A DNA stretch of 64,000 nucleotides from Candidatus Acidiferrum sp. (GCA_035622585.1 DASPVC010000060.1:119096-183095), one strand, 5' to 3'; positions 37,772-57,067 are shown, counted from the first letter of the stretch. The notes: generated from the sequence alone by a model not told the origin. A program made the numbers and translations.

Positions 37772-38434
37772 GTGATTCGAGTGATCACGATCGAGCGCGA
37801 ATACGGCAGCGGCGGTGCAGAGATCGCGAGAAAGGTCGCGGACCGGCTTGGCTGGAAGCTCTGGGACCAGGCGTTGACGAACGAAATCGCGTCCGTTATG
37901 GAATGTGATTGCCGAGTGGTTGAGGAGCGCGCCGAGAAGCGTGATCCATTGCACTATCGTTTGTTCAGGGCCTTCATGCGTGGCAGTTTCGAAGGCAGCC
38001 TCAATGCTCCGCGGCTCAAAATGGCGGATGCCGATTGCATCCGGGAAGTGACCGAGCGCGTAGTAAAGCGCGTGGCCGAGCAGGGCAATTGCGTGATCGT
38101 GGGGCGCGGGTCAGCTTACTACCTGCAGAACCGGCAGGATGCGTTTCACGTGTTCGTGTACGCTCCGGTAGAAGAAAAGATCCAGCGCCTTCGAGAAGGC
38201 GGGAAAAGCGCACAGGAAGCCGCGCAACTCGTCGAAACTGTGGACCGTGATCGCGGAGCCTTCATAAAACAATACTTTGGCGTCGAATGGCCCGATCGTC
38301 ACCGCTTCGATCTCATGATTAACTCAACGATTGGCGAAGACGGTGTCGTCGAGGCGATTTTGGATGGCGTCCTGCGACTGGAAAAGCGTGGAACGGCGTC
38401 GACATCATCGAATCCGCAGCACGCCGTGCGATAG
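37772..38434 (+). CDS. Cytidylate-kinase-like family protein (P-loop NTPase)
   Basis: ITIEREYGSGGAEIARKVADRLGW is typical of the 'cytidylate kinase-like family'. GTG start. Confidence 0.7.
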   Translation: MIRVITIEREYGSGGAEIARKVADRLGWKLWDQALTNEIASVMECDCRVVEERAEKRDPLHYRLFRAFMRGSFEGSLNAPRLKMADADCIREVTERVVKRVAEQGNCVIVGRGSAYYLQNRQDAFHVFVYAPVEEKIQRLREGGKSAQEAAQLVETVDRDRGAFIKQYFGVEWPDRHRFDLMINSTIGEDGVVEAILDGVLRLEKRGTASTSSNPQHAVR

Positions 38435-38618
38435 TCCGCGTAGACCTTGCCGGGTGCAGGCCGTATCGCGCGCTTTCTCCTTCAGGAACACCGGGATCCT
38501 CTCCGCATCGGCGAAGGTGCATCTCATGCTCCGCATCAATTGGTTGGCATTCAATCACAATCCCTTTGCCTTCAATCGCTGGCAACGTTAGCTGAGCGTG
38601 ATTGCAGCCACGCGACGG

Positions 38619-38634
38619 CGTGACACGCGTCACA
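38619..38634. promoter_or_regulatory. CRP-type box cGTGA-CACGCG-TCACA
   Basis: 9/10 match to TGTGA-N6-TCACA, centred about 54 nt upstream of the USP ATG (38681). Confidence 0.45.
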
Positions 38635-38680
38635 GCACCCCCTTCGCAACTCCTGCAACCTATTACGTAGGAGGCGCGAC

Positions 38681-39571
38681 ATGAAGGCCGCCGTAGCAAC
38701 TCCCGGCATCGCCGTCAAAGCGATTCTCTTCGCAACCGATTTTTCGGATGCAGCCAAAAGAGCACAGTCTTATGCCACCGGATTGGCCAATCGGTTTCGG
38801 GCCAGACTCGTGGTCGTCCACGCAAACGAACCGCCCAATTATGGCCTTCGCCCCGAAAACTGGCGCGCCGCAAACGAAGCCTCGGCCGCCCAAATGAAGG
38901 ACCTTCGGGAAACGCTCGAAACGAATTTTCCCGGCTTCGAAAGTGACTTCTGCGTGGGCGAAGGGAACGCCTGGCAAGTGGTCGAATCGGTGCTCATGAA
39001 AGACAAGATCGACCTGATCGTGCTCGGCACGCGTGGCCGGACCGGCGTTGGAAAACTGCTGCTTGGGTCACAAGCGGAGGAAATTTTCCGTCACGCTCCG
39101 TGCCCGGTATTGACCGTCGGTCCAAACTCGCAGCAGATGACAGGCAAAGAAAACGAGTTAGCCGAAATTCTCTACGCGACCGACTTCAGCCCGGAGTCTC
39201 AGGCGGCCGCACCGTATGCTGTTGGCATGGCACTGTCCCTACAGGCGCATTTGAACCTTCTGCACGTCGTAGAAGAACCGAAGACCAGCGAGCTGCTGCG
39301 CCCGGAGGAAGTGGTCACGTCGTCGGAGCGCCTTCTCCGCAGTTTGATCCCCGAGGATGCAAAGTTCTGGCGCGAGCCGCGTTGTTTCGCCGAGCGAGGA
39401 GCGCCGGCAGAGAGGATTCTCGAAGTGGCCGAGCGAGTGCACGCGGGATTGATCGTGCTGGGGGTTCGGAAGCCCGCGGGCGTGCCCGGCGCAGCAACGC
39501 ACCTGGGGGTCGGCGTAGCGCACAAGGTGGTGTCCGCAGCGACTTGTCCGGTTCTAACGGTGCGTGGTTAA
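38681..39571 (+). CDS. Tandem-domain universal stress protein
   Basis: Two UspA domains. ILFATDFS, LIVLGTRGRTGVGKLLLGSQAEEI and CPVLTV, with a repeat in the second half. Confidence 0.88.
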   Translation: MKAAVATPGIAVKAILFATDFSDAAKRAQSYATGLANRFRARLVVVHANEPPNYGLRPENWRAANEASAAQMKDLRETLETNFPGFESDFCVGEGNAWQVVESVLMKDKIDLIVLGTRGRTGVGKLLLGSQAEEIFRHAPCPVLTVGPNSQQMTGKENELAEILYATDFSPESQAAAPYAVGMALSLQAHLNLLHVVEEPKTSELLRPEEVVTSSERLLRSLIPEDAKFWREPRCFAERGAPAERILEVAERVHAGLIVLGVRKPAGVPGAATHLGVGVAHKVVSAATCPVLTVRG

Positions 39572-39626
39572 TTTGAGCGCGCCGCAAAGAGTTTCATCGA
39601 GGGTCGAGGCGAGGAGGAGGTGGGCC

Positions 39627-40526
39627 ATGGCTGGAGTCCAAACCGGTTCTCGAGTTGTTCTCAAAAACGTACTGTACCTGACAGATTTTTCGGAGCCCTC
39701 AGAGGCGGCTCTGCCCTTTGCGTCGTCAATCGCTCGTGAGTACGGCGCGAAAGTGTACGCGTATCACGTGCTCATCCCGGCGACCTACACCTACACGACG
39801 CCCGAGTTGACTGCGGCAGCGATCGAAGGGCAGGAGGAGGCCGCACTGGCAAACATGCAGCGCGTGGACGCACACCTCTCCGGTCTGCCGCACGAGACAA
39901 TTGTCGAGCGCGGGACGGGAATCTGGTCTTCACTCGAGCAAGCCATGAAAGACTATGAAATCGACCTGATCGTGCTGGGAACCCATGGACGTACGGGAGC
40001 GCAGAAGCTTCTGATGGGTTCCGTCGCCGAAGAAGTCTTCCGCCGCTCACACGTTCCGGTGCTGACCATCGGCCCGGGCGAGCGTCGCGGTGCGCATCGA
40101 GGCGCGCGATTCCGCCACGTGCTTTTTGCGACGGATTTCAGTGCTGAGGCCCTTGCCGCAGCACCGTATGCCCTGTCGATGGCCCAGGAGAATGAGGCAC
40201 GGCTCACCTTGTTGCACGTAATGAAAGAGCCTGAGACCAAGCCGTTCGACAAAGCCACCGAGGACGCGATATCGAGCGCCCTATTCCAGCTGCATGAAAT
40301 CGTGCCGGAGACAGCTGAATCCTGGTGCCGCCCCGAGGCGGTCGTCGAGTTCGGAAATGCAGCCGAGCAGATCTTGAAGACCGCAATGGAACGCGGCGCG
40401 GACTTGATCGTTCTCGGCGTTCGCGGTGGTCGGGGAGTGCCAGGCGCCGCTACGCATCTCGAGCGGGCTACCGCTCACAAGGTCGTGGTGCACGCCCTCT
40501 GCCCGGTGCTGACGGTCCGCGGATGA
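39627..40526 (+). CDS. Tandem-domain universal stress protein
   Basis: [44 protein letters not shown] and VPVLTI; the second domain ends CPVLTVRG. Confidence 0.88.
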
Positions 40527-40551
40527 AGCAAGAAAACTTGTAAAAAACCGC

Positions 40552-43332
40552 ATGGCCGCCGATATTGTAGGCGTGAGTTCACCAAGCCTGCCTCGAGAAG
40601 CCAAATCCTCACCGCTCGGCGGCACCGCAGCCCGCCGAGCGTCGCTCGACGCCATATTCCAGCCTCGCTCGGTCGCCGTCATCGGGGCGACGGACCGTGA
40701 AGGCAGCGTTGGCCGGGCGACGCTCGTCAATCTGATTGGCGTTTCTTTTCCAGGAAGGATTTACCCGGTTAATCCGCACCGGTCCGAAATTCTGGGCCGC
40801 CGCTCCTTCCAGAAAATCGGCGACATTCCCGAAGCCGTCGATCTCGCTGTTATTGTGACGCCCGCCGCAACCGTTCCTGCCATTGTGGGCGAGTGCATCG
40901 CCGCGGGCGTCAAAGGAGCGGTGGTTATCTCGGCCGGATTCCGCGAGCACGGAGCGCAAGGGCTGGCTCTGGAACGCGAAATTTCCGAACAGCTTCGCCG
41001 GGATCGCCTGCGAGTCGTTGGCCCGAATTGCCTCGGAGTCATGAATCCCGTCATCGGACTGAACGCAACCTTCGCGCAGACCATCGCGCGGCCGGGCAAT
41101 GTGGCGTTTCTCAGCCAGAGTGGCGCGCTCCTGACGGCGATTCTCGATTGGAGCCTGCGCGAACAGGTTGGATTCAGCGCGTTCGTATCGACCGGATCGA
41201 TGCTCGACGTCGGATGGGGCGACCTGATCGACTACTTCGGAGACGATCCAAACACGCAGAGCATTTTGATCTACATGGAGTCGGTCGACGACGCGCGCTC
41301 GTTTCTTTCCGCGGCGCGAGCCGTGGCGATGAGCAAGCCGATCATCGTTATCAAAGCTGGCCGCAGCGAAGCCGCATCGAAAGCGGCGTCCTCGCACACC
41401 GGCGCACTGACCGGCAGCGACGAAGTGTTCGACGCCGTTTTGCGGCGCTGCGGGGTGCTGCGCGTGCAAAGTATTTCGGACGTCTTCTACATGGCGGAGG
41501 TCCTGAGCAAGCAGCCGCGTCCCCGCGGGCCGCGCCTTGTGATCGTCACCAATGCGGGAGGGCCGGCGGTGCTCGCGACAGACGCGCTCGTCGCAGAAGG
41601 CGGCGAAGTCGCGTCTCTCTCCGACGCGTCCCGGAAGGCGTTGGACGATCTCCTGCCGCCGTTTTGGAGCCATGGGAATCCGATCGATGTTCTTGGCGAC
41701 GCGGATCCGGAGCGGTACGCCCGGGCTATCGAAATCGCGATAAAGGATCCGGGCAGCGACGGTCTGCTGGCAATTCTTGCACCGCAAGGAATGACCGATC
41801 CCGCGGGCGTTGCGCGGCGCCTGGGGCCTTACGCGCGGGATCACGGCAAACCGCTGCTTGCGAGCTGGATGGGCGGAAAATACGTTGAACCTGGCGAGGT
41901 GACGCTCAACGCGTCCGGAATTCCTACCTTTGCCTATCCAGACACCGCCGCGCGCGTCTTCGTGAATATGTGGCGCTATTCCTATCATCTTAGGGGACTC
42001 TACGAAACGCCGACGATTGCGGACGATCCGAGCGTGGCAGCCGAGCGAGTGCGCAAAGGACGCGAAATCCTCTCTTTGGTTTTGGCACAAGGGCGCACGC
42101 TGCTCACCGAAGTGGAATCGAAACAGGTCTTGGCTCTCTATGACATTCCCACGGTCACGACGAAGGTGGCGCGAAACCCGGACGAAGCCGTAGCGGTCGC
42201 GCGCGAAATCGGGTTTCCCGTCGTCCTCAAGCTGCACTCCCGAAAGATCACGCACAAGACAGATGTGGGCGGCGTGAAGCTCGACCTGGCCGATGCGGAC
42301 GCGGTCAGAAAAGCGTACGGTGAGATCCAGAAGAGCGTCACTTCACTGGCTGGCGCGGATAGCTTCGAAGGCGTGACGGTGCAGCCCATGGTACGACTCG
42401 AGGGATACGAGCTGATCCTGGGCAGCAGCGTCGATCCGCAGTTTGGTCCCGTGCTGCTGTTCGGCTCAGGGGGACAACTTGTGGAAGTCTATCGCGACCG
42501 CGCGCTCGGCTTACCGCCGCTCAATACGACGCTGGCGCAGCGCTTGATGGAACAAACAAAGATCTATAGCGCGCTAAAAGGAGTTCGCGGGCGGAAGCCG
42601 GTGAATCTGGACGAACTCGAGCGCATATTGGTCCGTTTCAGCTACATGCCCATCGAACTATCGCGCATCAAGGAAATCGACATTAATCCCCTTGTCGCGT
42701 CCGCCGACAGGCTCTCGGCGCTGGATGCTCGCATCGTGCTGTTCGACACCAGTGTGCCGGACTCGGCCCTGCCGCGTCCGGCCATCCGACCCTACCCCAG
42801 TCAGTATGTGTCTCGCTGGAAGATGAAAGATGGCCGCGATGTTCTGATTCGGCCGATCCGGCCCGAGGACGAGCCTCTCATGCGGAGCTTTCACCAATCG
42901 CTTTCCGCGCAAACCGTGTATCTGCGCTATTTCCACATGGAGGCGCTCAGCGCGCGCGTCGCACACGAGCGCCTGCTGCGGAAGTGCTTCATTGACTACG
43001 ACCGCGAGATGGCGCTCGTCGCCGAAGCAGTTGATCCGGCAACACATGAGCGCAAGATCCTGGGCGTCGGGCGGCTGGCGCGCCAGCGCGACCCCTTGGA
43101 GGGCGAAGTCGCCGTCTTGATTGAGGACCATTCCCAGAATCTTGGATTGGGCACCGAGTTGCTGCGCCTCTTGATTGAACTGGCCCGCGACGAGGGCTAT
43201 GCGCGTATTGTCGCCCACGTGCTGCCGGAAAACACGACCATGCGCAGACTCGCCGAACGCTTCCATTTCGAGATCCAACCGCATGAAGACCCCTCGCAGG
43301 TCGTCTCAGTCCTGAATATTAAACACGCCTAA
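40552..43332 (+). CDS. Pat-type bifunctional protein: ADP-forming acetyl-CoA synthetase-like (CoA-binding + ATP-grasp) fused to a C-terminal GNAT acetyltransferase
   Basis: 926 aa. CoA-binding [21 protein letters not shown], an ATP-grasp region, and a GNAT tail ([27 protein letters not shown]). Confidence 0.85.
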
Positions 43333-43388: not shown

Positions 43389-43404
43389 TGTGATTAGCGT
43401 CACA
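43389..43404. promoter_or_regulatory. Perfect CRP-type box TGTGA-TTAGCG-TCACA
   Basis: 10/10 match to TGTGA-N6-TCACA in the 43333-43456 intergenic region. Confidence 0.5.
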
Positions 43405-44381: not shown

Positions 44382-46127
44382 GTGACCAGCGTGGAGCAGC
44401 ATGCCGAAATCCTGATCGGGAAGCCATGGCGACAACGAATCCCTGGCTGGCACGACGTAGTCGCCATGCTGTTGTTGGTCGCCGTAATTGTCTTGCTGGG
44501 TTCCGGCGGCCGCCAGATGGTTGCTCCATTTGCGCTGGCGCAGCAGCCAACGATTTCCCTTTCACCGTCCGTTCTGCCGGGCTATGCCCTCCGCACCACG
44601 ATGCGGATGCTCGCAGCTCTGGTCGCCTCGCTGATTTTCACATTCACGTACGCAACTGCCGCAGGGAAAAGTCGCCGGGCGGAAATGGTCCTCATCCCGC
44701 TGCTCGACGTGCTGCAGTCGGTTCCCGTGCTCGGGTATCTGTCGTTCACCGTTGTCTTCTTCGTTTCGTTATTTCCGGGCAGTTCGTTGGGACCGGAGCT
44801 CGCGGCGATCTTCGCAATCTTCACGAGCCAGGCCTGGAACATGGCCTTCAGCTTTTATCAGGGGCTGCGAACGATTCCAATCGACTTGGACGAAGCGAGC
44901 CGTGCTTTCCAGCTGTCGGCCTGGCAGCGTTTTTGGCGCTTGGAAACTCCTTTCGCGATGCCGGGACTCGTGTGGAACATGATGATGTCGATGTCGGGCG
45001 GTTGGTTCTTCCTGGTGGCATCTGAAGCCATCTCGGTCGGCTCGATTCAGGTCACCCTTCCCGGAGTCGGTTCCTACGTCGCTCTGGCAATTGAGCAACG
45101 CGACCTTCGAGCTATCGGATGGGCGATCGTGGCCATGACGGTCACCATTGTGCTGTACGATCAGCTTCTCTTTCGCCCGATGGTCGCTTGGGCCGACAAG
45201 TTCCGCTTTGAGCAGACAGCCGCTGTGACGGTTCCCCGAAGTTGGGTTCTTGATGTATTCCGCCAATCGCCATTGCTTACCGCGATGGGCACCCCGCTCA
45301 TGACGGGCATGGAGGTGCTCGCCCGGTCCCGATTTTCTTTTCCGAGAAAAATTCGCTGGCCTCATCCCATGCGCGCACACCAGCGGCTTGGTGATGTAGC
45401 CTGGCTGGCTCTGATTGCTATGGTGCTGGCGTACGTCGGATGGAAGCTCGCCGAATTTGCTCGCCCTACGCTGACGTGGGCCGACCTCGGGGACGTGACG
45501 GCTAACGGCGCTCTCACGCTTCTGCGTGTCGTCATCTTGATCATCCTCGCTTCCGTGATCTGGGTTCCCATCGGGGTCGCCGTGGGCCTCCGGCCCCGGC
45601 TCGCCGAGAAGGTTCAGCCCCTCGCGCAGTTTCTGGCGGCCTTTCCCGCGAATTTGCTCTTCCCGATTGCGGTGTTTCTGATCGTGCGATACCAGCTCAC
45701 GCCCAAGATCTGGCTGAGCACACTGATGATCCTTGGGACGCAGTGGTACATTCTTTTCAACGTGATCGCCGGAGCGACGGCGTTTCCGAGCGACTTGCGC
45801 GAATGCGCCACGAGCTTTGGCGTACGAGGCTGGCGGTGGTGGAGGGAAGTCATGCTGCCCGGAGTTTTTCCATACTACGTGACAGGCGCGATCACCGCCT
45901 CGGGAGGCGCTTGGAATGCGAGCATCGTCTCAGAAGCGGTCAGTTGGGGCTCGCAGCACATCAGCGGACTCGGGCTCGGCGCGTACATCGCAGACAAGAC
46001 AGCGGCCGGCGACTACCCGCGAATTGCCCTGGGAGTCGCGGTCATGTCCGTCATCGTCATAAGCCTGAACCGATTAATCTGGCGCCCGCTCTACGCTCTC
46101 GCTGAAAGACGTACACGTCTCGACTGA
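44382..46127 (+). CDS. ABC transporter permease, duplicated/fused (NitT/TauT-like)
   Basis: 581 aa with two permease halves, each about 6 TM. EAA-like loops: DEASRAFQLSAWQRFWRLETP and ECATSFGVRGWRWWREVMLP. Confidence 0.8.
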   Translation: MTSVEQHAEILIGKPWRQRIPGWHDVVAMLLLVAVIVLLGSGGRQMVAPFALAQQPTISLSPSVLPGYALRTTMRMLAALVASLIFTFTYATAAGKSRRAEMVLIPLLDVLQSVPVLGYLSFTVVFFVSLFPGSSLGPELAAIFAIFTSQAWNMAFSFYQGLRTIPIDLDEASRAFQLSAWQRFWRLETPFAMPGLVWNMMMSMSGGWFFLVASEAISVGSIQVTLPGVGSYVALAIEQRDLRAIGWAIVAMTVTIVLYDQLLFRPMVAWADKFRFEQTAAVTVPRSWVLDVFRQSPLLTAMGTPLMTGMEVLARSRFSFPRKIRWPHPMRAHQRLGDVAWLALIAMVLAYVGWKLAEFARPTLTWADLGDVTANGALTLLRVVILIILASVIWVPIGVAVGLRPRLAEKVQPLAQFLAAFPANLLFPIAVFLIVRYQLTPKIWLSTLMILGTQWYILFNVIAGATAFPSDLRECATSFGVRGWRWWREVMLPGVFPYYVTGAITASGGAWNASIVSEAVSWGSQHISGLGLGAYIADKTAAGDYPRIALGVAVMSVIVISLNRLIWRPLYALAERRTRLD

Positions 46128-46135: not shown

Positions 46136-47455
46136 ATGACCACGTCCCTAGGTGTTCCGATCGTTGAGATGCACAAGGTCTCGAAGGCCTTTCCAAGACC
46201 TTCAGGCGAGCCCCTGACGGCGCTGGCCGATATCAATCTCTGCCTAAGGGAAGGCGAAATCCTGGGCTTGGTGGGGCGCTCAGGCTCGGGCAAGTCGACA
46301 CTCGTGCGCATCGCGGCAGGATTGATCGAGCCGACTTCGGGCGAGGTACTCTATTGCGGTAGACCTGTTCACGGACCAGTCGCAGGTGTCGCCGTCGTCT
46401 TTCAAACCTTCGCGCTCTTTCCGTGGCTCAACGTCATCGAAAACGTCGAACTTGGACTCGATGCCCAGGGCGTTGATCGCCAAGAAGCGCGCCGTCGGTC
46501 CGAGGCGGCAATCGATCTGATCGGCCTTGACGGTTTCCAGTCTGCATACCCGCGCGAACTATCAGGAGGCATGCGTCAGCGCGTGGGCTTCGCCAGAGCG
46601 ATGGTGATCCAGCCCACCGTGCTCTTGATGGATGAGCCCTTCTCTGCGCTCGACGTCCTGACCGCGGAAACGCTGCGGACCGATTTTATCGATCTGTGGG
46701 TCGAGCATCAGTTGCCGACAAAGTCCGTGGTCCTCGTGACGCACAACATCGAGGAAGCGGCGCTGATGTGCGATCGCGTTTTGGTTCTCTCGTCGCATCC
46801 CGGCCGTATCGCGGCGGAAATCCCGGTTCCGTTATCGCACCCTCGCAATCGCCTCGATCATGAGTTCCGCAACATCGTCGAGGAGTTCTATTCGATATTG
46901 ACGGCGCGTGCCGTGGAATCAAAGAAGGCACAGAGAGAGCTTCACGGCGGATTTGTGCGGCCGTTGCCGACCCTCGGAATCAATCGAATCATCGGCTTCA
47001 TCGAAGCGCTGGCTTCCCCGATGCATCAGGGACAGGCCGAGCTCGCCAAGATCGCGCACCTGCCGTCTCTGCAGGTAAGGGACGTTCTGGCGGTGGCCGA
47101 GGCTCTTCACATCCTTGAATTTGCGGAACTGCAAGAAGGCTCGATCAAACTGACTGCAGCGGGCCGAGTTTTCGCCCAGAGCGGGACGGACGAGCGTAAG
47201 CGCCTATTCCGCGAGCACCTTCTACGTTTCGTACCGTTCGCGGCCCACATTTGTCGCGTACTCCAGGAGCGCGAGGGGCACTCTGCTCCGAGCGTAAGAT
47301 TTAGGTCCGAACTAGAGGATCATCTGAGCGCCGAGGACGCCGAAAAGACGCTGTACACCATTATCCGCTGGGGACGATACGCGGAAGCTTTCGCCTACGA
47401 CGACGAAACACACAGTTTCAGCATGATCCCTGCCGCTGAGCAGACGAAACCATAA
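46136..47455 (+). CDS. ABC transporter ATP-binding protein (NitT/TauT-like) with a ~180-aa C-terminal extra domain
   Basis: Walker A GRSGSGKST, signature LSGGMRQR and Walker B LLMDEPFSALD, followed by a long C-terminal extension. Confidence 0.85.
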   Translation: MTTSLGVPIVEMHKVSKAFPRPSGEPLTALADINLCLREGEILGLVGRSGSGKSTLVRIAAGLIEPTSGEVLYCGRPVHGPVAGVAVVFQTFALFPWLNVIENVELGLDAQGVDRQEARRRSEAAIDLIGLDGFQSAYPRELSGGMRQRVGFARAMVIQPTVLLMDEPFSALDVLTAETLRTDFIDLWVEHQLPTKSVVLVTHNIEEAALMCDRVLVLSSHPGRIAAEIPVPLSHPRNRLDHEFRNIVEEFYSILTARAVESKKAQRELHGGFVRPLPTLGINRIIGFIEALASPMHQGQAELAKIAHLPSLQVRDVLAVAEALHILEFAELQEGSIKLTAAGRVFAQSGTDERKRLFREHLLRFVPFAAHICRVLQEREGHSAPSVRFRSELEDHLSAEDAEKTLYTIIRWGRYAEAFAYDDETHSFSMIPAAEQTKP

Positions 47456-47563
47456 GAAACGTCGCCTTGCTTCGAAGGCAGCGACGGCCAATCCCCATCG
47501 CCCCCCTTTGTTCGGCCATATCATCTCGGCACAGCCTGTTGTTGCCAGGTCGTAACTTGCCCT

Positions 47564-49891
47564 GTGACTACACACGGTGTTAACTTCTGCCTTGCTATGA
47601 AGGAAGAGGGGGCCCTGCAAGCATCGTCCCTAAGGGTAGCGTCCACAGATCGTTGGAGGCTGTTGGAATCGGCCCCCGACGCCATGGTAATCGTGGACGG
47701 AGGTGGACGGATTGCATTCATCAATTCGCAGGCCGAACGCATGTTCGGCTATTCCCACAGCGAATTGCTGGGCCAGCCCGTAGAAGTGCTTACCCCTGAG
47801 TCAGTTCGGCACGCGCACGTTCGTCATCGCGCAGAATACGCGGCGGCCCCTCGCACTCGCGAGATGGGGTCCGGCCTCGAACTTAGGGGTCGCCGAAAAG
47901 ACGGCAGTAGCTTCCCGGTAGAAATCAGTTTGAGCCCGCTGCAAGAGCCGGACGGCCGATTTTTCGTCAGCGCGATTCGCGACATAACGGAGCGACGGCA
48001 GATTCAAGAAGCCTTGCGATTAAGCGAGGAGCGCTTTCGTCGGCTCGTCGCAGAGGTTCGCGACTACGCCATTTTTCTGCTCGATCCGCAGGGGAACATA
48101 CGAACGTGGAATGTGGGCGCCGAGAGGATCAAAGGCTACCGGGCCGATGAAGTTATCGGTAAGCATTTTTCGATGTTCTTTCCCTCCGAAGAGGTCGAAC
48201 GTGGCAGGCCCGCGGCCGAACTGGCAGAGGCCGCCAAAGAAGGCCGCGCCGAGGACGAGGGCTGGCGCATTCGAAAGGACGGCTCGCGTTTCTGGGCGAG
48301 CATCGTAATTACCGCGCTCCACGACGAGAATGGCAAGCTACTCGGTTTCACGAAAGTCACGCGGGACATCACGCAACGAAAGCGCGTCCGCGAGGCGTTT
48401 CTTCTCGAAGTGACGAACGCCCTTCTTTCAAACCTTGACATCACAAAGTTGCTCCGAGCCATCGGCCTGTGCGTTCGTCAAGTGAAGGAATTCGACTACG
48501 CAACGCTGGCGCTCTATGATGCCGAGACAAAAATGCTTCGCGTGCAGCCGGTGGGAGCGGGACCCGGCAACGAGCCGTTTCCTCCCGGAATGCTAATCCC
48601 GATTACAGGCTCGCCGAACGGATGGTCCTACGTCTCCGGCAAGCCTCTTTTGCTCAAGGGTTTGCCCGGAGAGCAATTCCCCTTTCAGATCCCTGAGCAC
48701 GTCGCGCAGGCATCGGTGAAGTCCGGCTGTTGGGTGCCGCTGATCGGCAGAGAGGGACCGCTTGGCACCCTCAACCTCTTCAGCCGGAAACCCGGTGCCT
48801 TCTCCGAGGACGATTTACCAGGGCTCTTGCAGCTGGGCGCCCAAGTTGCTGTGGCGCTCGATAATGCCCTCGCCTATCAGCGCCTGGCCGACCTGAATGC
48901 AAGGCTGGCAAAGGAAAAGCTCTACCTAGAAGACGAGTTGCGGACGAGCGCTAGTTTCGAGGAGATCATCGGAAATAGCAACGCCCTCAAGCGGGTCCTC
49001 AAACAAATTGAGACCGTCGCGCCCACCGAGTCGACGGTTCTGATTCTGGGAGAAACCGGCACGGGAAAAGAACGGCTCGCACGGGCGGTTCACGATCTAA
49101 GTCCCCGGAGGGACCGGCCCTTCGTGAAGGTCAATTGCGCTTCCGTGCCGGCAGGGCTTCTTGAAAGCGAACTCTTTGGCCACGAGAAGGGCGCCTTCAC
49201 CGGTGCGATCGCGCAGAGAATCGGACGATTTGAGCTGGCTCATCAGGGCACGCTCTTTCTCGACGAGGTGGGAGAGATTCCCCTCGAGCTCCAGCCGAAG
49301 CTCTTGCGCGTCCTGCAGGAGAAGCAATTCGAGCGCCTCGGCAACAGCCGCACGATGACGACTGACGTTCGCATCGTGGCGGCCACCAACCGTGACCTAG
49401 GCAAGCTGGTGGCGTCCGGCCAATTCCGTAGCGATCTCTATTACCGCCTCAGCGTGTTCCCGGTTCTCGTGCCGCCGCTGCGAGAACGAGCCGAGGACAT
49501 TCCTCTGCTTGTCCATTATTTTCTCTCCAAATTTTCGAAGATCATGGGAAGAAACATCGAGTCGGTACCTCCGGACACAATGCAGGCTTTAGTCCGCTAC
49601 CCGTGGCCGGGCAACGTCCGGGAACTCGAGCACCTCGTAGAACGGGCTGTGATTCTCTCGCCCGGACCTGAACTCCGCATTCCGCTCACAGAACTTGCCT
49701 ACGGCGACGAGGTGATTCCCAAAGCGTCCTCGACGCTGCACGATATGGAGCGGGAGCACATTATCCGCATTCTGCGTGAGACCCACGGCAAGATCGGTGG
49801 TCCCGGCGGCGCCGCCGAGCGGTTGGGCATGAATCGAACCACGCTCAATTCGCGCATGCAGAAATTGGGAATCTCCCGAAAAGACTTCTGA
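47564..49891 (+). CDS. Sigma54-dependent transcriptional activator (PAS-PAS-GAF-AAA+-Fis HTH)
   Basis: Two PAS modules and a GAF-like region. [15 protein letters not shown], the exact GAFTGA loop (EKGAFTGA), and a C-terminal [24 protein letters not shown]. Start is uncertain (47564 GTG or 47597 ATG). Confidence 0.9.
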
Positions 49892-49932: not shown

Positions 49933-49948
49933 TGTGACGCGCATCACT
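49933..49948. promoter_or_regulatory. CRP-type box TGTGA-CGCGCA-TCACt
   Basis: 9/10 match to TGTGA-N6-TCACA between the activator stop and the hsp20 start. It overlaps a 7-bp inverted repeat, GTCACAG-N4-CTGTGAC (49921-49938). Confidence 0.45.
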
Positions 49949-50086
49949 GTCCGCTTTGTCCCCTTCTGGAATCTTAGGCTTGAGCGCTGGCCTTCGTGAT
50001 TCCTGTCAGCGCCGGTCGCAGGACAGGACCGGGGGACCGAACCATCAAAGCCAGCGCTGATATTGATGGAAAGTGAGGAAGGTAAG

Positions 50087-50614
50087 ATGGCTGAGAAAGG
50101 GGCAGCTGTACAACTCGCTAAACAACCGACCACTATCGCGCCGCTCGGGGTGGAAAACCTGTTCGAGCGAGCAAATAACATCTTCGATGCGATTTCCCGC
50201 CGGGCCTACGACATCTTTGAGAGCAATGGCAGGCTGTTCGGCCGCGAACTCGAAGACTGGTTCCGAGCCGAAAGGGAATTGCTCCATCCCGTTCACGTTC
50301 ATGTCACCGAGTCAGGCGACGCCCTAGAGGTCAAAGCCGAAGTGCCAGGCTTCAACGAGAAGGAATTGGAAATCAACGTCGAACCCCGCCGGCTTGTGAT
50401 TAGCGGCAAGCGAGAATCGAAAAAAGAGGAGAAAAAGGGCAAGACCGTCTACTCCGAGGCCTGCTCCGACCAAATCATGCGCATGATCGAGCTCCCGGCC
50501 GACGTGGAAACGGAAAAAGTCACAGCGACACTAAAGAACGGCGTTCTTGAACTGACTCTTCCCAAGTCAGCCAAGGCGCGCAGTGTGCGCATCGAGCCAA
50601 AAGCCGCCGCGTGA
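50087..50614 (+). CDS. Hsp20/alpha-crystallin small heat-shock protein
   Basis: ALEVKAEVPGFNEKELEINVEPRRLVISGKRE...IELPADVETEKVTATLKNGVLELTLPK. SD GAGGAAGG precedes 50087. Confidence 0.9.
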   Translation: MAEKGAAVQLAKQPTTIAPLGVENLFERANNIFDAISRRAYDIFESNGRLFGRELEDWFRAERELLHPVHVHVTESGDALEVKAEVPGFNEKELEINVEPRRLVISGKRESKKEEKKGKTVYSEACSDQIMRMIELPADVETEKVTATLKNGVLELTLPKSAKARSVRIEPKAAA

Positions 50615-50626
50615 AGCTGCGGTTCA

Positions 50627-50673
50627 CTCAGCCGAACGGGCGGAGCAGTCAGAATTCCGCCCGCTTGGCTGAG
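50627..50673 (+). terminator. Long hairpin after hsp20 (17-bp stem with one wobble and one mismatch, 13-nt loop); no U tract
   Basis: CTCAGCCGAACGGGCGG ... CCGCCCGCTTGGCTGAG. Confidence 0.35.
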
Positions 50674-50763
50674 GGCGTTCAACGTGACGTCGAATGGCCT
50701 CAGGATAATTGGCGCGGCGACAGGTGACCTGAAAGCCAGGCGTCACGAAGAAGGAGACAAATT

Positions 50764-51252
50764 ATGAAGGTGCAAGACATAATGATGAGAACACCTGCCT
50801 GCTGCACGCCAGAAACCAATCTTGGCGCTGCAGTCGAAATCCTCTGGAACCGCAATTGCGGCATGCTCCCCGTGGTGGACGCTAGGCAGAGAGTGATTGG
50901 GGTGATCACAGATCGCGACCTATGCGTGGCCTTGGGAACCCGCAACCGGCTGCCCGGCGAAATCACCGTGGGGGAGGTTCTGAGCGGAGAGGCTTTTACT
51001 TGTCGGACGGAGGACGATATCCACGCGGCGCTGCAGACGATGGCCGCGAAAAAAGTCCGTCGCCTCCCTGTGGTGGATGAAAGCGGCGTTCTGCAAGGGA
51101 TCCTGTCAATGGACAACGTTGTCCTCCATGCAGAGTTGGGCGGCTGGAATCAGTCGGCCGAACTCTCGCAGGAGGACATTGTCAGAACATTGCAGCAGAT
51201 CTACGGTCCGCGGCTGCCGCAAGTGGTGCGGGCGCGCGCGATGGTGGTCTGA
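50764..51252 (+). CDS. Stand-alone CBS-pair domain protein
   Basis: Two CBS motifs: MLPVVDARQRVIGVITDRDL and RLPVVDESGVLQGILSMDNV. Confidence 0.88.
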   Translation: MKVQDIMMRTPACCTPETNLGAAVEILWNRNCGMLPVVDARQRVIGVITDRDLCVALGTRNRLPGEITVGEVLSGEAFTCRTEDDIHAALQTMAAKKVRRLPVVDESGVLQGILSMDNVVLHAELGGWNQSAELSQEDIVRTLQQIYGPRLPQVVRARAMVV

Positions 51253-52692: not shown

Positions 52693-54315
52693 ATGCCGGG
52701 CAAACAACTGCTTTTCCGATCTGCCGCGCGGGAAAAGGTCCTCAAGGGAGCGACGGCGATCACCGACGCCATTCGCATCACCCTGGGCCCGAAGTCCAAG
52801 TGTGTGCTGATCCAGAAAAAGTGGGGCAAGCCCGTTGTCTGCAATGACGGCGTCACGATCGCCAAAGAGATCGAGTTCGAAAACGCGGAGGAAAATCTTG
52901 GTGCTCAGATGATCCGCGAAGCCGCCGAACGCACTGGCGACGTTGTGGGAGACGGCACCAGCACGGCGTCAATTTTGACGAACGCGATTTTCGCGGAGGG
53001 CTTGCACAACATCGCCGCTGGCGCCAGCGCGGTTGACTTGAAACGCGGCCTCGACCGCGGCCTCCGCATCGCTGTCGAAGCTCTTAAGAAGCTCGCGCGC
53101 CCTGTGACTGGCCGCCTGGAAAAAAGCCAGGTCGCCACGATTTCCGCTCACAACGATAGCTCCATCGGCGAACTCGTCGCCGATGCCGTCGAAAAAGTCG
53201 GCGCGGAGGGTGTGATCACGGTCGAAGAAGCGAAGACGACCGAGACGACACTCGAGTTGGTCGAAGGAATGCAGTTCGATCGCGGTTATATCTCGCCTTA
53301 TTTCGTCACCGACGCGGCCAAGATGGAGGCCGTGCTCCTTGATCCCGTGATCCTGATCCATGAGAAGAGAATCAGCAATCTTCAAGACCTGCTGCCCCTG
53401 CTCGAAGAAATCTCCAAGGCCGGGCGGTCTCTTCTCGTCATCGCCGAAGATGTGGATGGCGAAGCTCTCGCGACGCTGGTGGTGAATAAGGTTCGCGGAG
53501 CTCTGCTTTCCGCCGCCGTCAAGGCGCCTGGCTTCGGCGACCGGCGGAAGGAGATGCTGCAGGACGTCGCCATTCTGACCGGCGGACAGGTGATCGCCGA
53601 GGAACTCGGCATCAAGATCGAAAATGTCACGCTCGATCAGCTCGGCAAGGCCAAGCGTGTCGTCATCGACCGTGACAAAACAACGATCGTCGAAGGCGCC
53701 GGATCGAAGCAGGGGATTGAAGCGCGCTGCGCAGACATCCGAAAGCAGGTCGAACTCTGCAAGTCCGATTACGATCGCGAGAAGCTGCAGGAGAGGCTGG
53801 CGAAACTCGCGGGGGGCGTGGCCCTGATCCGCGTCGGCGCTCCTTCTGAAGCGGAGTTGAAAAACCGCAAGGAAGCCTTCGAAGACGCCATCAGCGCCAC
53901 GAAAGCCGCCATTGCCGAGGGCATCGTTGCGGGCGGAGGCCTCGCGTTCCTTCGCCTGATCGAAGCGGTGGGCAAGGAAGAGGCAAATTGTACAGGTGAT
54001 GAGCGCACCGGGCTCACCATTCTGAAACGCGCTTTGGAGGCTCCGACGCGCCAGATCGCCGAGAATTCCGCATTCGACGGCGGCGTCGTTGTGGATCGAA
54101 TGAGGTCCGGGCAGGGCGATTTCGGATTCGACGCAGCCCGCGGCGAATATGTCGATCTGGTGAAGGCGGGAATCATCGACGCAGCGAAGGTGGTGCGCGT
54201 CGCGCTCGAAAATGCCGTGTCCGTCGCGAGTGTCCTGCTGCTCACCGAAGCAACACTCACCGAGATTCCCGAAAAAAAAGAAAGAGCAGCAAGTCAGGAA
54301 TTGGCTGAGGTATAA
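52693..54315 (+). CDS. groEL: GroEL-type chaperonin paralog with no adjacent groES and no GGM tail
   Basis: [22 protein letters not shown] and [12 protein letters not shown]. The C-terminus [14 protein letters not shown] replaces the Gly-Met repeats. Confidence 0.92.
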
Positions 54316-54379: not shown

Positions 54380-55267
54380 ATGAAGCTCTTGATCGCCACC
54401 GACCTCTCGCCAACTTCGCATTGGGTAATCGACGCCGTGAAAGGGCGCCCCTGGCCTGCGGGGACCGAGGCGTGCATTCTCCATGTAGTCGATCTCACGC
54501 CGTTTCCGCTGGGCGCCGAACTCATGGACTCTGCGCGAAAAGCGGCCGAGTCGTCCGTGAAATCGATCAGCGATAGCCTCGCAAAATTAGGGCTCAAGAT
54601 TTACACCGAGGTCTTCCCGGGTGCTCCCCGGAGTGCGGTGCCCGAATACGCGAAGAATTGGGGGGCTGACTTCGTAATGGTCGGATCTCACGGGAGCACC
54701 GGCATTGGACGCTTCCTGCTCGGGAGCGTGGCGCAAGCCGTAGTTCGCAACGTTCCCTGTTCCGTCGAAATCGTGCGACACAGGCCGGATCGCAAGCCGG
54801 CTCCGGGCGAGGGCCTGAGAATCTTGGTCGCAACGGATGGCTCGGATTGCTCCGCCGCGGCGGTTCGATCAGTCGCCACGCGCCCCTGGCCGCCTCGGAC
54901 CTCGATTCGAGTCATCAGCGCTGTTGCTCCTTTCATCCCGATCGCCGATGCTGCCTCGGCCTACTTCTACGCGAGTCAGTCAGTCTTGGCAGCCCAAGCC
55001 GTTGAAGAGGCGGGTCGGTCACGCGCGACCGAGGCCATCGCGCGGGCCGGCGATCTCTTCCGCGGGGCTGGGGTCACCGGGGTTGAAACTGGCGAGCCGA
55101 TTCTCGGTGACCCGAAAGCCGTGATCCTGGACGAAGCGCAACAGTGGGCCGCAGACATCATCGTCGTCGGCTCGCATGGCTGGCATGGCTTGGATCGCCT
55201 GATGATGGGTAGCGTCTCCGAGTCCGTCGCCATGCACGCGCATTGTTCCGTGGAAGTGATTCGGTAG
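54380..55267 (+). CDS. Tandem-domain universal stress protein
   Basis: LLIATDLS, FVMVGSHGSTGIGRFLLGSVAQAV and CSVEIVR; the second domain has IVVGSHGWHGLDRLMMGSVSESV and CSVEVIR. Confidence 0.88.
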   Translation: MKLLIATDLSPTSHWVIDAVKGRPWPAGTEACILHVVDLTPFPLGAELMDSARKAAESSVKSISDSLAKLGLKIYTEVFPGAPRSAVPEYAKNWGADFVMVGSHGSTGIGRFLLGSVAQAVVRNVPCSVEIVRHRPDRKPAPGEGLRILVATDGSDCSAAAVRSVATRPWPPRTSIRVISAVAPFIPIADAASAYFYASQSVLAAQAVEEAGRSRATEAIARAGDLFRGAGVTGVETGEPILGDPKAVILDEAQQWAADIIVVGSHGWHGLDRLMMGSVSESVAMHAHCSVEVIR

Positions 55268-55489
55268 GCGAGTTTCGATTCACACTGCAGCCTCATTGAA
55301 GTTCGCTGCGCCGGGGCGTAACGGCACAGTGCGCCGCACGCGGTGACGAAGCTAGGCGACGATATTTCGTCGCGTGACGAGATGTCGCCTGATCCCGCTC
55401 CCAATTTGGGACGCTCTAATCCCTCCCTGCCTAACTTAACTGCCCACTTTTGAATGGCTTACGCCGCGGCACCGTCGCCTCTTTCGGAG

Positions 55490-55505
55490 TGGCTCAACTC
55501 TTGCA
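55490..55505 (+). promoter_or_regulatory. Sigma54 promoter TGGCTC-AACTC-TTGCA (canonical -24 GG / -12 GC spacing)
   Basis: Matches TGGCAC-N5-TTGCW at 13 of the 16 positions, and at all spacing-critical ones. The C of the -12 GC (55504) is 12 nt from the A of the STAS ATG (55516). Confidence 0.55.
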
Positions 55506-55515
55506 TTTGTGATCC

Positions 55516-55836
55516 ATGGACAGAACAAACGTGCTGCGGATCACACGAAGCAACGAACCAAACTCACTCGGGCTGAGACTCGAAGGCCGATTGGAAGGAC
55601 CTTGGGTCGAAGTGCTGAGAAAGACTTGGGCGGACACGCTCGATCATGACCGGCGCCGGCGAATCGTCGTAGATCTGAGCGGCGTCAGCTTTGCGGATTC
55701 CGTGGGTCGCACGCTGTTGCTCAACATGCAAGGAGAGGGCGTAGGGCTCATCAAGGCATCGGCATTTCTGCGCGAAATGCTGAAACTAAACGGATTGAAC
55801 CTCAAGCAGCACGACGCGAATGAAAAAGGAGAATGA
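55516..55836 (+). CDS. STAS-domain protein (anti-sigma-factor-antagonist-like)
   Basis: 106 aa. RIVVDLSGVSFADSVGRTLLLNM is a typical STAS core. Confidence 0.75.
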   Translation: MDRTNVLRITRSNEPNSLGLRLEGRLEGPWVEVLRKTWADTLDHDRRRRIVVDLSGVSFADSVGRTLLLNMQGEGVGLIKASAFLREMLKLNGLNLKQHDANEKGE

Positions 55837-55837
55837 A

Positions 55838-56557
55838 ATGCGAGCTCCATACGGCATGGAACTGATCGAGGACTGCAAAACTTGTCCGATGAGGAAAAAC
55901 GGCTTCTTCTGCCAGCTGGCCGGCCCTGCGCTTCAAGCGTTCAGCAACGTCAAGTTCACGACCACATACCCGGCGCAGGCGGTTCTATACGTCGAGGGAC
56001 AAGCCCCACGCGGGATTTACATGCTCTGCAAGGGCCGCGTCAAGCTCACGATGAACTCTGCCGACGGCAAGACCCTGATCGTCCGCATCTGCGAACCCGG
56101 AGAGATTCTCGGCGCACATGCGGCGATTTCGGGAGAGACGTACGAGCTGACGGCCGAAGCTCTTCAGCCCTGCCAAGTCGACTTCGTTCGGCGCGAAGAC
56201 TTCCTGAAACTGCTCCGCGAACAGCCCGATATCGCTGCAGCTGTGATGCGGCAGCTCAGCACTGGTTACCGCCGGGCCTGCCAGGAAATTCGCTACCTTG
56301 GCCTCTCCCGGTCGGCGAGTGAGAAGGTTGCGCAATTCCTGCTGGAAACGGCGTCCAGCGGCCAGCAGACGAACCAGGGAAAGCGCTTCCATCTGGGTTT
56401 GACCCATGAAGAAATCTCTCAGATCGTCGGGATTTCTCGCGAGACGGTGACGCGCACCATGACTGAGTTCAAGAACAAAGCCCTGATCGCGACAAAAGGC
56501 GCAATGATCGTCATCCGGAATGAGTCCGGGCTCAGGGCGCAGGCTGCGGCGGCGTGA
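55838..56557 (+). CDS. Crp/Fnr-family transcriptional regulator with a CRP-type recognition helix and an N-terminal Cys cluster
   Basis: cNMP-binding-like beta-roll. HTH is EEISQIVGISRETVTRTMTEF (compare E. coli CRP GCSRETVGRILKML). N-terminus is DCKTCPMRKNGFFC. SD AAAGGAG precedes 55838. Confidence 0.88.
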   Translation: MRAPYGMELIEDCKTCPMRKNGFFCQLAGPALQAFSNVKFTTTYPAQAVLYVEGQAPRGIYMLCKGRVKLTMNSADGKTLIVRICEPGEILGAHAAISGETYELTAEALQPCQVDFVRREDFLKLLREQPDIAAAVMRQLSTGYRRACQEIRYLGLSRSASEKVAQFLLETASSGQQTNQGKRFHLGLTHEEISQIVGISRETVTRTMTEFKNKALIATKGAMIVIRNESGLRAQAAAA

Positions 56558-56602
56558 CGCTCCCCGGAGCGCAAAGGCGGCGCCAAAGGGCGGAGGCGCA
56601 TT

Positions 56603-57067
56603 ATGGAAACAACCCACAGATACGAGGTCAGAGCTAAATCGACCAGACCGCGCTCTGGTGTGGTCGCATCGGATGCGATAGCGCAGCCGATTGTGTTCAG
56701 CGTCCCGCCGGAATTTGCCGGCGAGCCTCGCGTCTGGACGCCGGAGCACTTTTTCGTCGCTGCCATCGTCGCGTGTTATGTGAGCACGTTTTCCGGCATG
56801 GCGGAAATATCTAAGTTCCATTTCATTTCGCTTGAGGTCGATGCTGAAGGGACGCTCGAGAAAGACACAAGCGGCTGGAAGTTCACGGAAATCAAGCTGC
56901 GCCCGGCTTTGAGAGTTTCTCAGGAGAAAGACGGCGACCGAGGCGTTCGGTTGTTGGAGAAGGCGGAGCGCACGTGTCTCATCGCGCGCTCGATCACGGC
57001 GAAGGTCACGCTGGAACCCACGATTAAGGTTTCCCCGGAAGTCGTGCTCTCAGAAGCGGCGCCATAG
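56603..57067 (+). CDS. OsmC/Ohr-family peroxiredoxin-like protein
   Basis: 154 aa. PEHFFVAAIVACYVSTF and ERTCLIARSI (two conserved Cys). Confidence 0.8.
   Translation: METTHRYEVRAKSTRPRSGVVASDAIAQPIVFSVPPEFAGEPRVWTPEHFFVAAIVACYVSTFSGMAEISKFHFISLEVDAEGTLEKDTSGWKFTEIKLRPALRVSQEKDGDRGVRLLEKAERTCLIARSITAKVTLEPTIKVSPEVVLSEAAP

Follow-up and report, generated by a model that had tools for sequence, protein, structure and literature searches.

A conserved stress-gene island of peat Acidobacteriota and its putative two-tier sigma-54/Crp control

Does a long run of stress genes in a Candidatus Acidiferrum genome represent a chance gathering of neighbours, or a survival programme that carries its own regulators? 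The question is raised by a stretch of 64,000 nucleotides (GCA_035622585.1 DASPVC010000060.1:119096-183095), hereafter called the window, and in particular by its positions 37,772 to 57,067, counted from the first letter. An earlier reading, made from the sequence alone, had described this region as 19 co-oriented genes resembling a hypoxia or dormancy regulon, apparently wired by sigma-54 and a Crp-family protein and probably forming a single regulon. We lean, with some reserve, towards a more precise version of that idea, in which the part running from usp1 to osmC (~38.6-57.1 kb) represents a lineage-specific low-oxygen/dormancy island of peat Acidobacteriota controlled by a two-tier cascade. 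Rather than one operon or a flat regulon, the island would comprise at least five transcription units distributed over the two tiers.

A first answer comes from conservation. One genome per GTDB species was scanned with an alignment of the baeRF protein, the aeRF1-like product encoded in the core of the block, and 24 window proteins were compared by tblastn with 90 loci, designated here by L numbers. The baeRF homologues come from 'Candidatus Acidoferrales/Acidiferrales' and other Terriglobia metagenome-assembled genomes (MAGs), and peat metagenomes contain DNA of the cluster. The core order activator-Hsp20-CBS-baeRF-(GroEL)-(USP3)-STAS-Crp-OsmC is kept in ~20 species-level Acidobacteriota genomes, whose baeRF proteins are 41-67% identical and whose flanks differ; for instance, the contexts of three homologues (67, 58 and 52% identical) present the same core order between different flanks. 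The baeRF3 homologues that are at most 37% identical (Syntrophales, Bacillota, Planctomycetota, Chloroflexota and others) are surrounded by unrelated genes. As the core order is kept across species with different flanks, the block is a lineage-specific conserved unit and not a chance juxtaposition, and conservation as a unit, which the sequence-only reading had proposed as its own test, holds for the core in these ~20 species.

Within the core, 16 syntenic loci extend to the position directly upstream of hsp20, and in 13 of them it is occupied by the activator gene. Hsp20 itself is 57-82% identical in all syntenic loci reaching its place, and cbs is kept directly after it. The crp gene is found inside the block in 15 loci, with stas conserved next to it and osmC following it (again in 15 loci), and OsmC is the last conserved gene on the right side. 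Crp starts 1 nt past the STAS stop codon, both here and in L001. Two members are optional: groEL, which is 87-95% identical in L011, L013, L025-L028 and L030 and absent from L012, L014, L018, L019, L022, L023 and L033, and USP3, which is present in most but not all orthologous loci. Some relatives have a phosphoribosyltransferase gene between cbs and baeRF (L005 9306-9971).

Upstream of the core, a pair of small Cys-rich proteins (sC1-sC2) usually precedes the activator gene, with a variable transporter slot in between. This slot holds ABC genes only here and in L013 (ATPase 72% identical), and elsewhere a minus-strand P-type cation ATPase, in many loci, or nothing; the ATPases are of the Cation_ATPase_N/C type (L001 3621-6149, L005 2812-5334). 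Further upstream, Pat and the USP1-USP2 pair are frequent neighbours: Pat precedes the core in L011, L012, L014, L016, L018, L025, L027 and L030 with 74-87% identity, and the order USP1-USP2-Pat is seen in L012 and L018. A fully syntenic locus, L025, is labelled Verrucomicrobiia, its proteins being 50-88% identical to those of the window; this label reflects either a binning error or a horizontal transfer of the whole island. A reduced module composed of OsmC, a HAD-family/P-loop protein, a phosphoribosyltransferase and Balon is present in L020, L021 and L024 (~6400-11200).

Concerning the gene content, Pfam scans of the plus-strand open reading frames (ORFs) between 37772 and 57067 recover every gene named in the sequence-only reading, in the same order and on the plus strand (Table 1). 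The GroEL gene is indeed an orphan Cpn60 gene with no adjacent GroES gene, and the ABC transporter has no binding-protein gene. The number of protein genes is 17; a count of 19 requires the co-oriented MFS gene (36101-37744) and the phosphorylase gene (57271-59001) as well. For several ORFs the true start lies downstream of the first possible start codon (47597 for the activator, 50087 for Hsp20, 51455 for baeRF, 43457 for sC1, 43906 for sC2 and probably 55838 for Crp).

The limits of the island differ from those first proposed. We rejected the cytidylate-kinase-like gene as a member, and it is instead a conserved partner of the MFS gene upstream of it: the two follow each other within 10-50 nt in the window (36101-38434) and in all three other acidobacterial genomes examined (L091, L092, L093), while the neighbours downstream of the kinase-like gene are others elsewhere. 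The protein is very widespread in Acidobacteria (73-99% identity among the 120 best matches listed), and in L001/L091, the contig with the closest syntenic cluster, ~35 kb separate the MFS-kinase-like pair from that cluster. With this pair outside, the left edge falls at the usp1 promoter, at ~38.6 kb. On the other side, glucan phosphorylase and lactate permease, which had been taken to continue the block, are both peripheral. The closest relative lacks the phosphorylase (TIGR02094), six others have it 1-5 kb downstream, and the window glgP (57271-59001) has no site of the Motif A type described below and almost no RNA contigs from peat; the permease gene (59015-60739) is convergent, on the minus strand, and follows OsmC in this way only in L001/L011.

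RNA from peat provides a second line of evidence. We collected contigs at least 95% identical to the cluster from four peat metatranscriptomes, comparing ~46 kb of the window (17.5-64 kb). Contigs over usp1-usp2 cover ~38.7-40.53 kb at depth 5-11 and end at 40522-40545, at the usp2 stop codon. Those over hsp20 reach depth 41-59, the highest of the protein genes compared, with 9-29 for cbs, 1-5 for baeRF (balon) and 3-44 for groEL, and stas-crp-osmC is covered at depth 3-10 by contigs spanning 55544-57059, which begin at 55544 and 55552. These three stretches are the deepest protein-gene contigs of the ~46 kb, and they are the ones that the model of cis-elements set out below predicts to be induced. 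The cytidylate-kinase-like gene, pat, the ABC genes and the greater part of the activator gene had no contigs. The flanks served as controls: in the 20 kb upstream, contigs were limited to an HtrA-type protease gene (depth 2.5-6.7) and a cross-matching tRNA, and there were almost none in the 6.6 kb downstream, where glgP and the permease gene lie. One contig skips 224 nt at the usp1/usp2 junction (39381-39606), which may represent a strain variant or an assembly join of the paralogous USP genes.

What could switch on these stretches together? The wiring by sigma-54 and Crp suggested earlier is backed at both tiers by conserved cis-elements. The first of them, Motif A (TGTGAC-N4-GTCACA), has its three best matches of the whole window in intergenic regions of the cluster, before usp1, sC1 and hsp20, and CGTGACACGCGTCACA and TGTGATTAGCGTCACA are the only two matches with one mismatch in the 64 kb. 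Among orthologous loci, scanned with up to two mismatches allowed, 15 of 17 have it 120-145 nt before hsp20, six (L013, L019, L022, L023, L030, L031) have it 41-82 nt ahead of the sC1 match, and none of its matches lies inside a recognised gene. Its four central bases vary freely, as expected of a protein-binding site. Across orthologs, the hsp20 site is separated from an extended -10 element by 18 unconserved nucleotides (19 in two loci), and this fixed spacer places the centre of Motif A at -41.5 and predicts the start of hsp20 transcription at 49982; one contig begins at 49992, and in another the match to the window sets in at 49982. A -10-like CAAYCT follows 21-22 nt past Motif A before usp1 and sC1. 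As judged from its sequence context, the placement of Motif A before usp1, sC1 and hsp20 is that of a class II activator site.

In relatives, Motif A also stands 120-180 nt upstream of glgP (4 loci) and before further genes outside the cluster, and some sites adjoin divergent usp genes. One or two tandem copies precede these glgP genes (L026 19183-19240, L028, L030, L013 17527).

The recognition helix of the in-cluster Crp, SRETVTR, aligns with SRETVGR of E. coli CRP and is invariant in 15 orthologs. In E. coli CRP, R180, E181 and R185 read TGTGA. Moreover, the distant locus L031, which has no activator gene, sigma-54 promoter or second motif (Motif B, below) nearby, encodes a 46%-identical Crp with the same helix, preceded by two copies of Motif A. 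Owing to the fit of the helix to TGTGA and to the pairing seen in L031, we assign Motif A to the in-cluster Crp as its candidate binding site.

The other set of elements concerns stas-crp-osmC, whose candidate promoter is of the -24/-12 type. The window has only two matches with one mismatch to TGGCAC-N5-TTGCW, and of these the element TGGCTCAACTCTTGCA alone lies in the cluster. In all 12 aligned orthologs GG-N10-GC (TGG-N9-TGCA) is invariant and lies 10-11 nt before the STAS start, with a varying spacer, a pattern characteristic of functional -24/-12 promoters. The two copies of Motif B (GACGA-N4-TCGTC), GACGATATTTCGTC and GACGAGATGTCGCC, stand further upstream, at about -133 and -151 from the predicted stas start. 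With at most one mismatch allowed, 15 of the 16 loci with a detected STAS or Crp have Motif B 125-216 nt before STAS/Crp, 7 of them in two copies, and it hardly occurs elsewhere. Enhancer-binding proteins of the NtrC/NifA type use upstream activating sequences with such a position and tandem dyad form, and by analogy Motif B may represent the upstream activating sequence of the sigma-54 activator encoded in the cluster. An exact lone copy at 22027, inside an ORF and with no partner copy or promoter, was taken as chance.

The activator has the features of an enhancer-binding protein: a Sigma54_activat domain (Pfam E 3e-72), an HTH_8 domain, and the GAFTGA motif, which all 14 orthologs share. 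A conserved promoter of sigma-70 type lies before the activator gene itself, at a distance from the ATG that implies a near-leaderless mRNA. A sigma-54-like element considered at this place was discarded, the conserved CTTGCC being the -35 hexamer of the sigma-70-type promoter. Likewise, no conserved sigma-54 promoter precedes hsp20, cbs or baeRF, and a conserved CTGGCC...TTGCC stretch has the wrong spacing and is one arm of an RNA stem. The promoters of the activator gene, stas and usp1 (47581-47599, 55503-55518 and 38657-38683) leave ~0-10 nt between the expected start of transcription and the start codon, which suggests leaderless or near-leaderless mRNAs in this lineage.

Which signal the two regulators would perceive is indicated by their sensor-type features. 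The first PAS domain of the activator (PAS1) matches the haem domains of FixL (1DP6/1Y28) with an E value of 1e-22, and E. coli DosP is also matched. The His of 'RHAH' in PAS1 aligns with the proximal His of FixL ('RSRH'; His200 of BjFixL) and is invariant in 14 orthologs; PAS1 thus resembles a FixL-like haem-PAS domain, with putative haem binding. In Crp, an N-terminal C-X2-C-X8-C motif, C70 and C154 are invariant in 15 orthologs. In E. coli FNR, C20, C23, C29 and C122 ligate the [4Fe-4S] centre. The positions E72, R82 and S83, which contact cAMP in established CRP structures, are A, E and L in the window Crp (HMMER alignment) and are not conserved. Crp probably carries a putative Cys-ligated cluster sensitive to oxygen or redox state. 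By these sequence features the two regulators resemble two classic oxygen sensors, FixL and FNR, and the hypoxia flavour attributed to the region gains support from the FixL-like PAS1 and the FNR-like Cys motif.

Among the putative effectors is the baeRF family 3 protein. As a single sequence it aligns over its full length (residues 17-391) with Balon (8rd8_B) at E 1e-4, and its profile gives 8e-12 over the N-terminal part only; the match to the Balon of MSMEG_1130 is marginal (E 0.1). It has no NIKS motif, and its lone GGQ (residue 367) is not conserved in alignment A1. The similarity is remote, and we regard the protein as a putative Balon-type ribosome hibernation factor. Balon homologues inhibit translation, their genes often neighbour Hsp20, OsmC and Hrp1 genes, and the homologue Rv2629 is induced by hypoxia (PMC10901736).

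All three USPs carry the ATP-binding motif G-x2-G-x9-G(S/T), in one copy in USP1 and in both domains of USP3. Pat shows the domain order CoA_binding_2, Succ_CoA_lig, Ligase_CoA_2, ATP-grasp_5 and then Acetyltransf_1/3 (residues 764-907). This corresponds to class I Pat/PatZ enzymes, in which an NDP-forming acyl-CoA-synthetase-like region of ~700 aa is followed by a C-terminal GNAT domain, and a USP is a physiological substrate of a mycobacterial protein acetyltransferase (PMC8556138). This precedent makes acetylation of the neighbouring USPs by Pat a reasonable idea, and by analogy Pat may acetylate the adjacent USPs or metabolic enzymes.

No Pfam, NCBIfam or PDB sequence match was found for sC1 or sC2, and an AF2 model of sC1 (pLDDT 70) had no Foldseek match in the PDB. 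In sC1, C44, C56, C59 and C76 are invariant (alignment A3). sC2 has a zinc-ribbon-like pattern, CX4C...CX2C, and is co-conserved with sC1; in some genomes the two are fused, one fusion (P0287) aligning with sC2 at E 1e-13. The sC1 family comprises only 77 proteins, and the sole source name given points to Acidobacteria. The narrow protein pair sC1/sC2 is apparently restricted to this phylum, and Motif A always stands before it.

In the cascade that we propose, the activator would form the first tier, expressed constitutively from its own sigma-70-type promoter. It would sense oxygen, another haem ligand or the redox state through its FixL-like PAS1 and bind the GACGA-N4-TCGTC dyads, upon which the sigma-54 promoter would open and stas-crp-osmC be switched on. 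In the second tier Crp, probably active only with an intact Cys-ligated centre, would bind Motif A near -41.5 and activate the predicted units usp1-usp2, sC1-sC2 (perhaps together with the ABC transporter) and hsp20-cbs-balon-groEL-usp3. Such a cascade would work as a coherent feed-forward loop or an AND gate, so that hibernation and chaperone loading would set in only under sustained oxygen limitation. Balon would then park ribosomes, Hsp20 and GroEL would hold or refold proteins, the USPs and the CBS protein would bind nucleotides, OsmC would remove peroxides, and STAS may modulate one of the regulators. The analysis itself shows the identities of the genes, their synteny, the conserved motifs with their geometry, the sensor-type sequence features and RNA in peat samples, whereas the pairing of proteins with motifs, the extents of the operons, the nature and sign of the signal and the physiological role of the island are what we infer. 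More tentatively, the haem-PAS sigma-54 activator and an oxygen-sensitive FNR-like/CRP-hybrid might both be required, as a true AND gate, for a Balon-centred module that would include sC1/sC2 as metal or Fe-S proteins and a stabilising hairpin in the hsp20 leader.

Several observations weigh against this interpretation. The pairings of Motif A with Crp and of Motif B with the activator are drawn by analogy, and the two motifs share TGAC/GTCA half-sites, so that a single protein might be able to bind the two. For Pat, the ABC transporter and the activator, which lack a Motif A or B of their own, membership of the island is only a matter of neighbourhood, and these are also the genes (most of the gene, in the case of the activator) that lack RNA contigs. 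The RNA evidence consists of assembled contigs, whose depth is a poor measure of expression, from samples with no oxygen metadata. Ahead of the predicted hsp20 start, one contig carries 72 extra nucleotides that do not resemble the window, and for this reason 49982 stays a prediction. With respect to the sensors, R206 of FixL finds no conservation in the PAS1 alignment, the Cys spacing of Crp is X8 against X5 in FNR, and C118, the candidate fourth ligand, is conserved in close orthologs and replaced by Ile in L031.

The alternative that survives best keeps the same cascade and gives it another trigger, such as NO or CO, redox or energy state, starvation or stationary phase, heat or desiccation, which would make the island a general dormancy/stress module. 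Haem-PAS domains are generally known to sense NO, CO and redox state as well, the activator has a second PAS and a GAF domain with no assigned ligand, and the Cys spacing of Crp is not that of FNR. The effectors could also fit, as Hsp20, GroEL, OsmC, USPs and Balon are general stress proteins, and operons containing Balon have been linked to stress from heat, osmolarity and acid and to stationary phase (PMC10901736). We nevertheless judge another trigger unlikely in view of the FixL haem-PAS proximal His and of the N-terminal Cys cluster on a Crp/Fnr scaffold, of a gene content that parallels the hypoxia-induced DosR regulon item by item, and of the peat in which the organism lives.

Less probable still, and in our opinion doubtful, is that the island is a conserved neighbourhood held together by shared function or inheritance and not one regulatory system, with Motif A being read by a Crp/Fnr paralogue encoded elsewhere and the in-cluster activator and Crp acting solely on their own unit or on distant genes. 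The reduced modules of L020, L021 and L024 would agree with such a view, as Motif A still precedes their osmC and phosphoribosyltransferase genes with neither a Crp nor an activator gene closer than 10 kb, and so would the loci with no adjacent activator gene (L026, L028) and the presence of Motif A before non-cluster genes in relatives. It would, however, leave aside the usual place of the activator gene next to hsp20 and of crp within the block, the invariant recognition helix that fits Motif A, the co-occurrence of Crp and Motif A even in the divergent L031, and the position of the sigma-54 promoter and dyads exactly before stas-crp. Finally, a chance juxtaposition of stress genes or a recently acquired mobile island, as might be imagined from the lower-G+C integrase/resolvase/methyltransferase island next to tRNA-Asn (24-35.8 kb) and from the Verrucomicrobiia label of L025, is hardly credible, since the cluster does not differ in G+C content from the rest of the window, gene order holds in ~20 species whose flanks differ, the units are tied together by conserved cis-elements, and the mobile-looking genes lie beyond the tRNA gene and the MFS/kinase-like pair.

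Concerning the favoured cascade, hsp20, the protein gene with the deepest RNA contigs from peat, has a further conserved feature in its leader. When leaders were folded from the predicted start, a hairpin was the minimum free energy (MFE) structure of the 5' end in 14 of 16 cases; it begins 1-8 nt past the predicted start and leaves the Shine-Dalgarno sequence unpaired. Its closing stem, GCGCTGGCC/GGCCAGCGC, shows compensatory changes from CTGG/CCAG to CCGG/CCGG. A search of Rfam matched only the tRNA and nothing in the hsp20 leader, and the hairpin may represent an mRNA-stabilising 5' stem-loop or a new leader element. Just past the hsp20 stop codon, a long GC-rich inverted repeat with no T-run (CTCAGCCGAACGGGCGGA...TCCGCCCGCTTGGCTGAG, 50628-50675) may explain the drop in RNA depth between hsp20 and cbs. 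Generic scans for sigma-70 promoters and terminators gave fewer sites than shuffled sequence and are uninformative as to operon ends.

Table 1. Genes and predicted control elements between positions 37772 and 57067 of the window, in order of position
Feature	Position	Strand	Basis or remark
Cytidylate_kin2 NTPase	37772-38434	+	Pfam
Motif A CGTGACACGCGTCACA, before usp1	38619-38634	+	1 mismatch; -10-like CAACCT ~22 nt downstream
USP1, tandem-domain	38681-39571	+	Pfam Usp x2
USP2, tandem-domain	39564-40526	+	Pfam; start overlaps USP1 end
Pat/PatZ-type lysine acetyltransferase	40552-43332	+	Pfam architecture
Motif A TGTGATTAGCGTCACA, before sC1	43389-43404	+	1 mismatch
sC1, small Cys-rich, 150 aa	43457-43909	+	no Pfam match
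sC2, small Cys-rich, 84 aa	43906-44160	+	no Pfam match
ABC permease, two fused BPD_transp_1 domains, NitT/TauT-like	44382-46127	+	Pfam, NCBIfam
ABC ATPase with C-terminal AAA_assoc_C	46136-47455	+	Pfam
Predicted activator promoter, sigma-70-type TTGCCC-N18-TAACTT	47557-47586	+	10 nt before ATG; 13 orthologous upstream regions aligned
Sigma-54 activator, PAS-PAS-GAF-Sigma54_activat-HTH_8	47597-49891	+	Pfam
Motif A TGTGACGCGCATCACT, hsp20 promoter	49933-49948	+	centre ~-41.5
Extended -10 TGGAATCTT, hsp20 promoter	49967-49975	+	consensus TGnRAnnnT
hsp20 leader 5'-terminal hairpin, ~76 nt	49983-50058	+	MFE structure
Hsp20, DUF2934 + HSP20 (alpha-crystallin)	50087-50614	+	Pfam
Stand-alone CBS-pair protein, Hrp1/Rv2626c-like architecture	50764-51252	+	Pfam
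baeRF_family3 (aeRF1-like, putative Balon type), 401 aa	51455-52660	+	Pfam; identical to P0001
GroEL paralogue (Cpn60)	52693-54315	+	Pfam
USP3, tandem-domain	54380-55267	+	Pfam
Motif B tandem dyad GACGATATTTCGTC + GACGAGATGTCGCC (GACGA-N4-TCGTC)	55358-55371, 55376-55389	+	18 nt apart
Candidate sigma-54 promoter TGGCTCAACTCTTGCA	55490-55505	+	-24 GG / -12 GC; ends 10 nt before STAS start codon
STAS_2, single-domain, anti-sigma-antagonist-like	55516-55836	+	Pfam
Crp/Fnr-family regulator	55838-56557	+	Pfam; ORF also open from 55820
OsmC-family peroxiredoxin-like protein	56603-57067	+	Pfam, NCBIfam

Elsewhere in the window, the stretch 24000-35900 has a G+C content of 0.53-0.58 and contains genes for an HNH-like protein, a D12 adenine methyltransferase, a DUF7690/DUF7687 protein, a serine resolvase and a tyrosine integrase, the last ending 18 nt before tRNA-Asn (35819-35893). 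It looks like an integrated mobile island beside a tRNA gene. Further upstream (18173-21339) lie genes for the HtrA/DegP-type protease (minus strand, with RNA contigs from peat), a VIT1 iron transporter and an Fe/Mn superoxide dismutase, which are unrelated to the cluster motifs.

Acidobacteriota are among the most abundant bacteria of soil and peat and are mostly uncultured, and their persistence through waterlogging and anoxia is largely unexplained. The island offers a testable persistence programme, with named sensors, promoters and sites at given coordinates and a putative hibernation factor at its centre. Searches for its conserved motifs in hundreds of MAGs could help to predict the remaining members of the regulon, and hsp20 and usp transcripts could mark oxygen-limited dormancy in situ in peat metatranscriptomes. 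Finally, the data suggest that another phylum has brought together a DosR-like effector set under regulators of a wholly different kind, which bears on the evolution of dormancy modules.

We found no description of this acidobacterial cluster in the searchable literature, and a close parallel in gene content is the DosR/DevR dormancy regulon of Mycobacterium tuberculosis. The parallel goes deeper than the sequence-only reading had claimed, as the eRF1-like gene is putatively of Balon type, like Rv2629 of the DosR regulon. Both systems gather several ATP-binding USPs, an alpha-crystallin small heat shock protein, a CBS-pair protein (Hrp1/Rv2626c) and a Balon-type protein (Rv2629) (PMC3177182, PMC10901736). 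In both, the small heat shock protein (hspX in mycobacteria) is the most strongly expressed member, as judged by RNA contig depth in the present case, and a haem-based gas sensor, putative in the present case, stands at the top. The P-type cation ATPase and the phosphoribosyltransferase found in relatives presumably correspond to ctpF and Rv0571c of the DosR regulon, respectively. The regulators are nevertheless different. No response-regulator or histidine-kinase domain was detected by Pfam in the 17 genes, whose regulators are the sigma-54 activator, the Crp/Fnr protein and STAS. The island is not a DosR regulon, because it lacks a DosR-type (NarL/LuxR) response regulator, a DosS/DosT haem-GAF histidine kinase and a Dev box; in their place it has a one-component activator with a putative haem-PAS domain and a Crp/Fnr protein. 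Moreover, the DosR regulon is spread over several loci in another phylum, whereas the genes described here form one contiguous block.

The Balon stress operons offer a similar gene content, with a Balon homologue beside Hsp20, OsmC and a Hrp1-like CBS gene, although the protein described here, a member of baeRF family 3, resembles the structurally characterised Balons only distantly (E 1e-4). We found no mention of Acidobacteria, of a dedicated pair of regulators or of cis-elements in the main text of the study describing them (Helena-Bueno et al. 2024, PMC10901736).

With respect to wiring, the cascade recalls the rhizobial oxygen cascade FixL-FixJ-FixK, which likewise has a FixL-type haem-PAS at the top, a second tier of the crp/fnr family, a palindrome near -41.5 and an involvement of sigma-54 (through NifA as its activator). 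Here, in contrast, the sensor is fused to the AAA+ sigma-54 activator with no kinase or response-regulator step, and the targets are dormancy and stress genes instead of those for respiration and nitrogen fixation. FixK has no Cys motif, and the FNR/FixK box is TTGAT-N4-ATCAA, as opposed to the CRP-type TGTGA-N6-TCACA found here.

Finally, the window Crp shares with E. coli FNR and CRP a cNMP-binding-like beta-roll and a helix-turn-helix. It has an FNR-like N-terminal Cys motif, spaced C-X2-C-X8-C instead of C-X2-C-X5-C, and its recognition helix SRETVTR and site TGTGAC-N4-GTCACA are not the E-x2-S-R helix and TTGAT-N4-ATCAA box of FNR. They correspond to the R-E-x3-R contacts and the 16-bp TGTGA-N6-TCACA-type site of CRP, at class II distance, while the cAMP-contact residues of CRP are not conserved and the gene itself would be driven by sigma-54. 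Unlike either E. coli protein, the window Crp thus appears to join FNR-like sensing features with a CRP-like DNA specificity.

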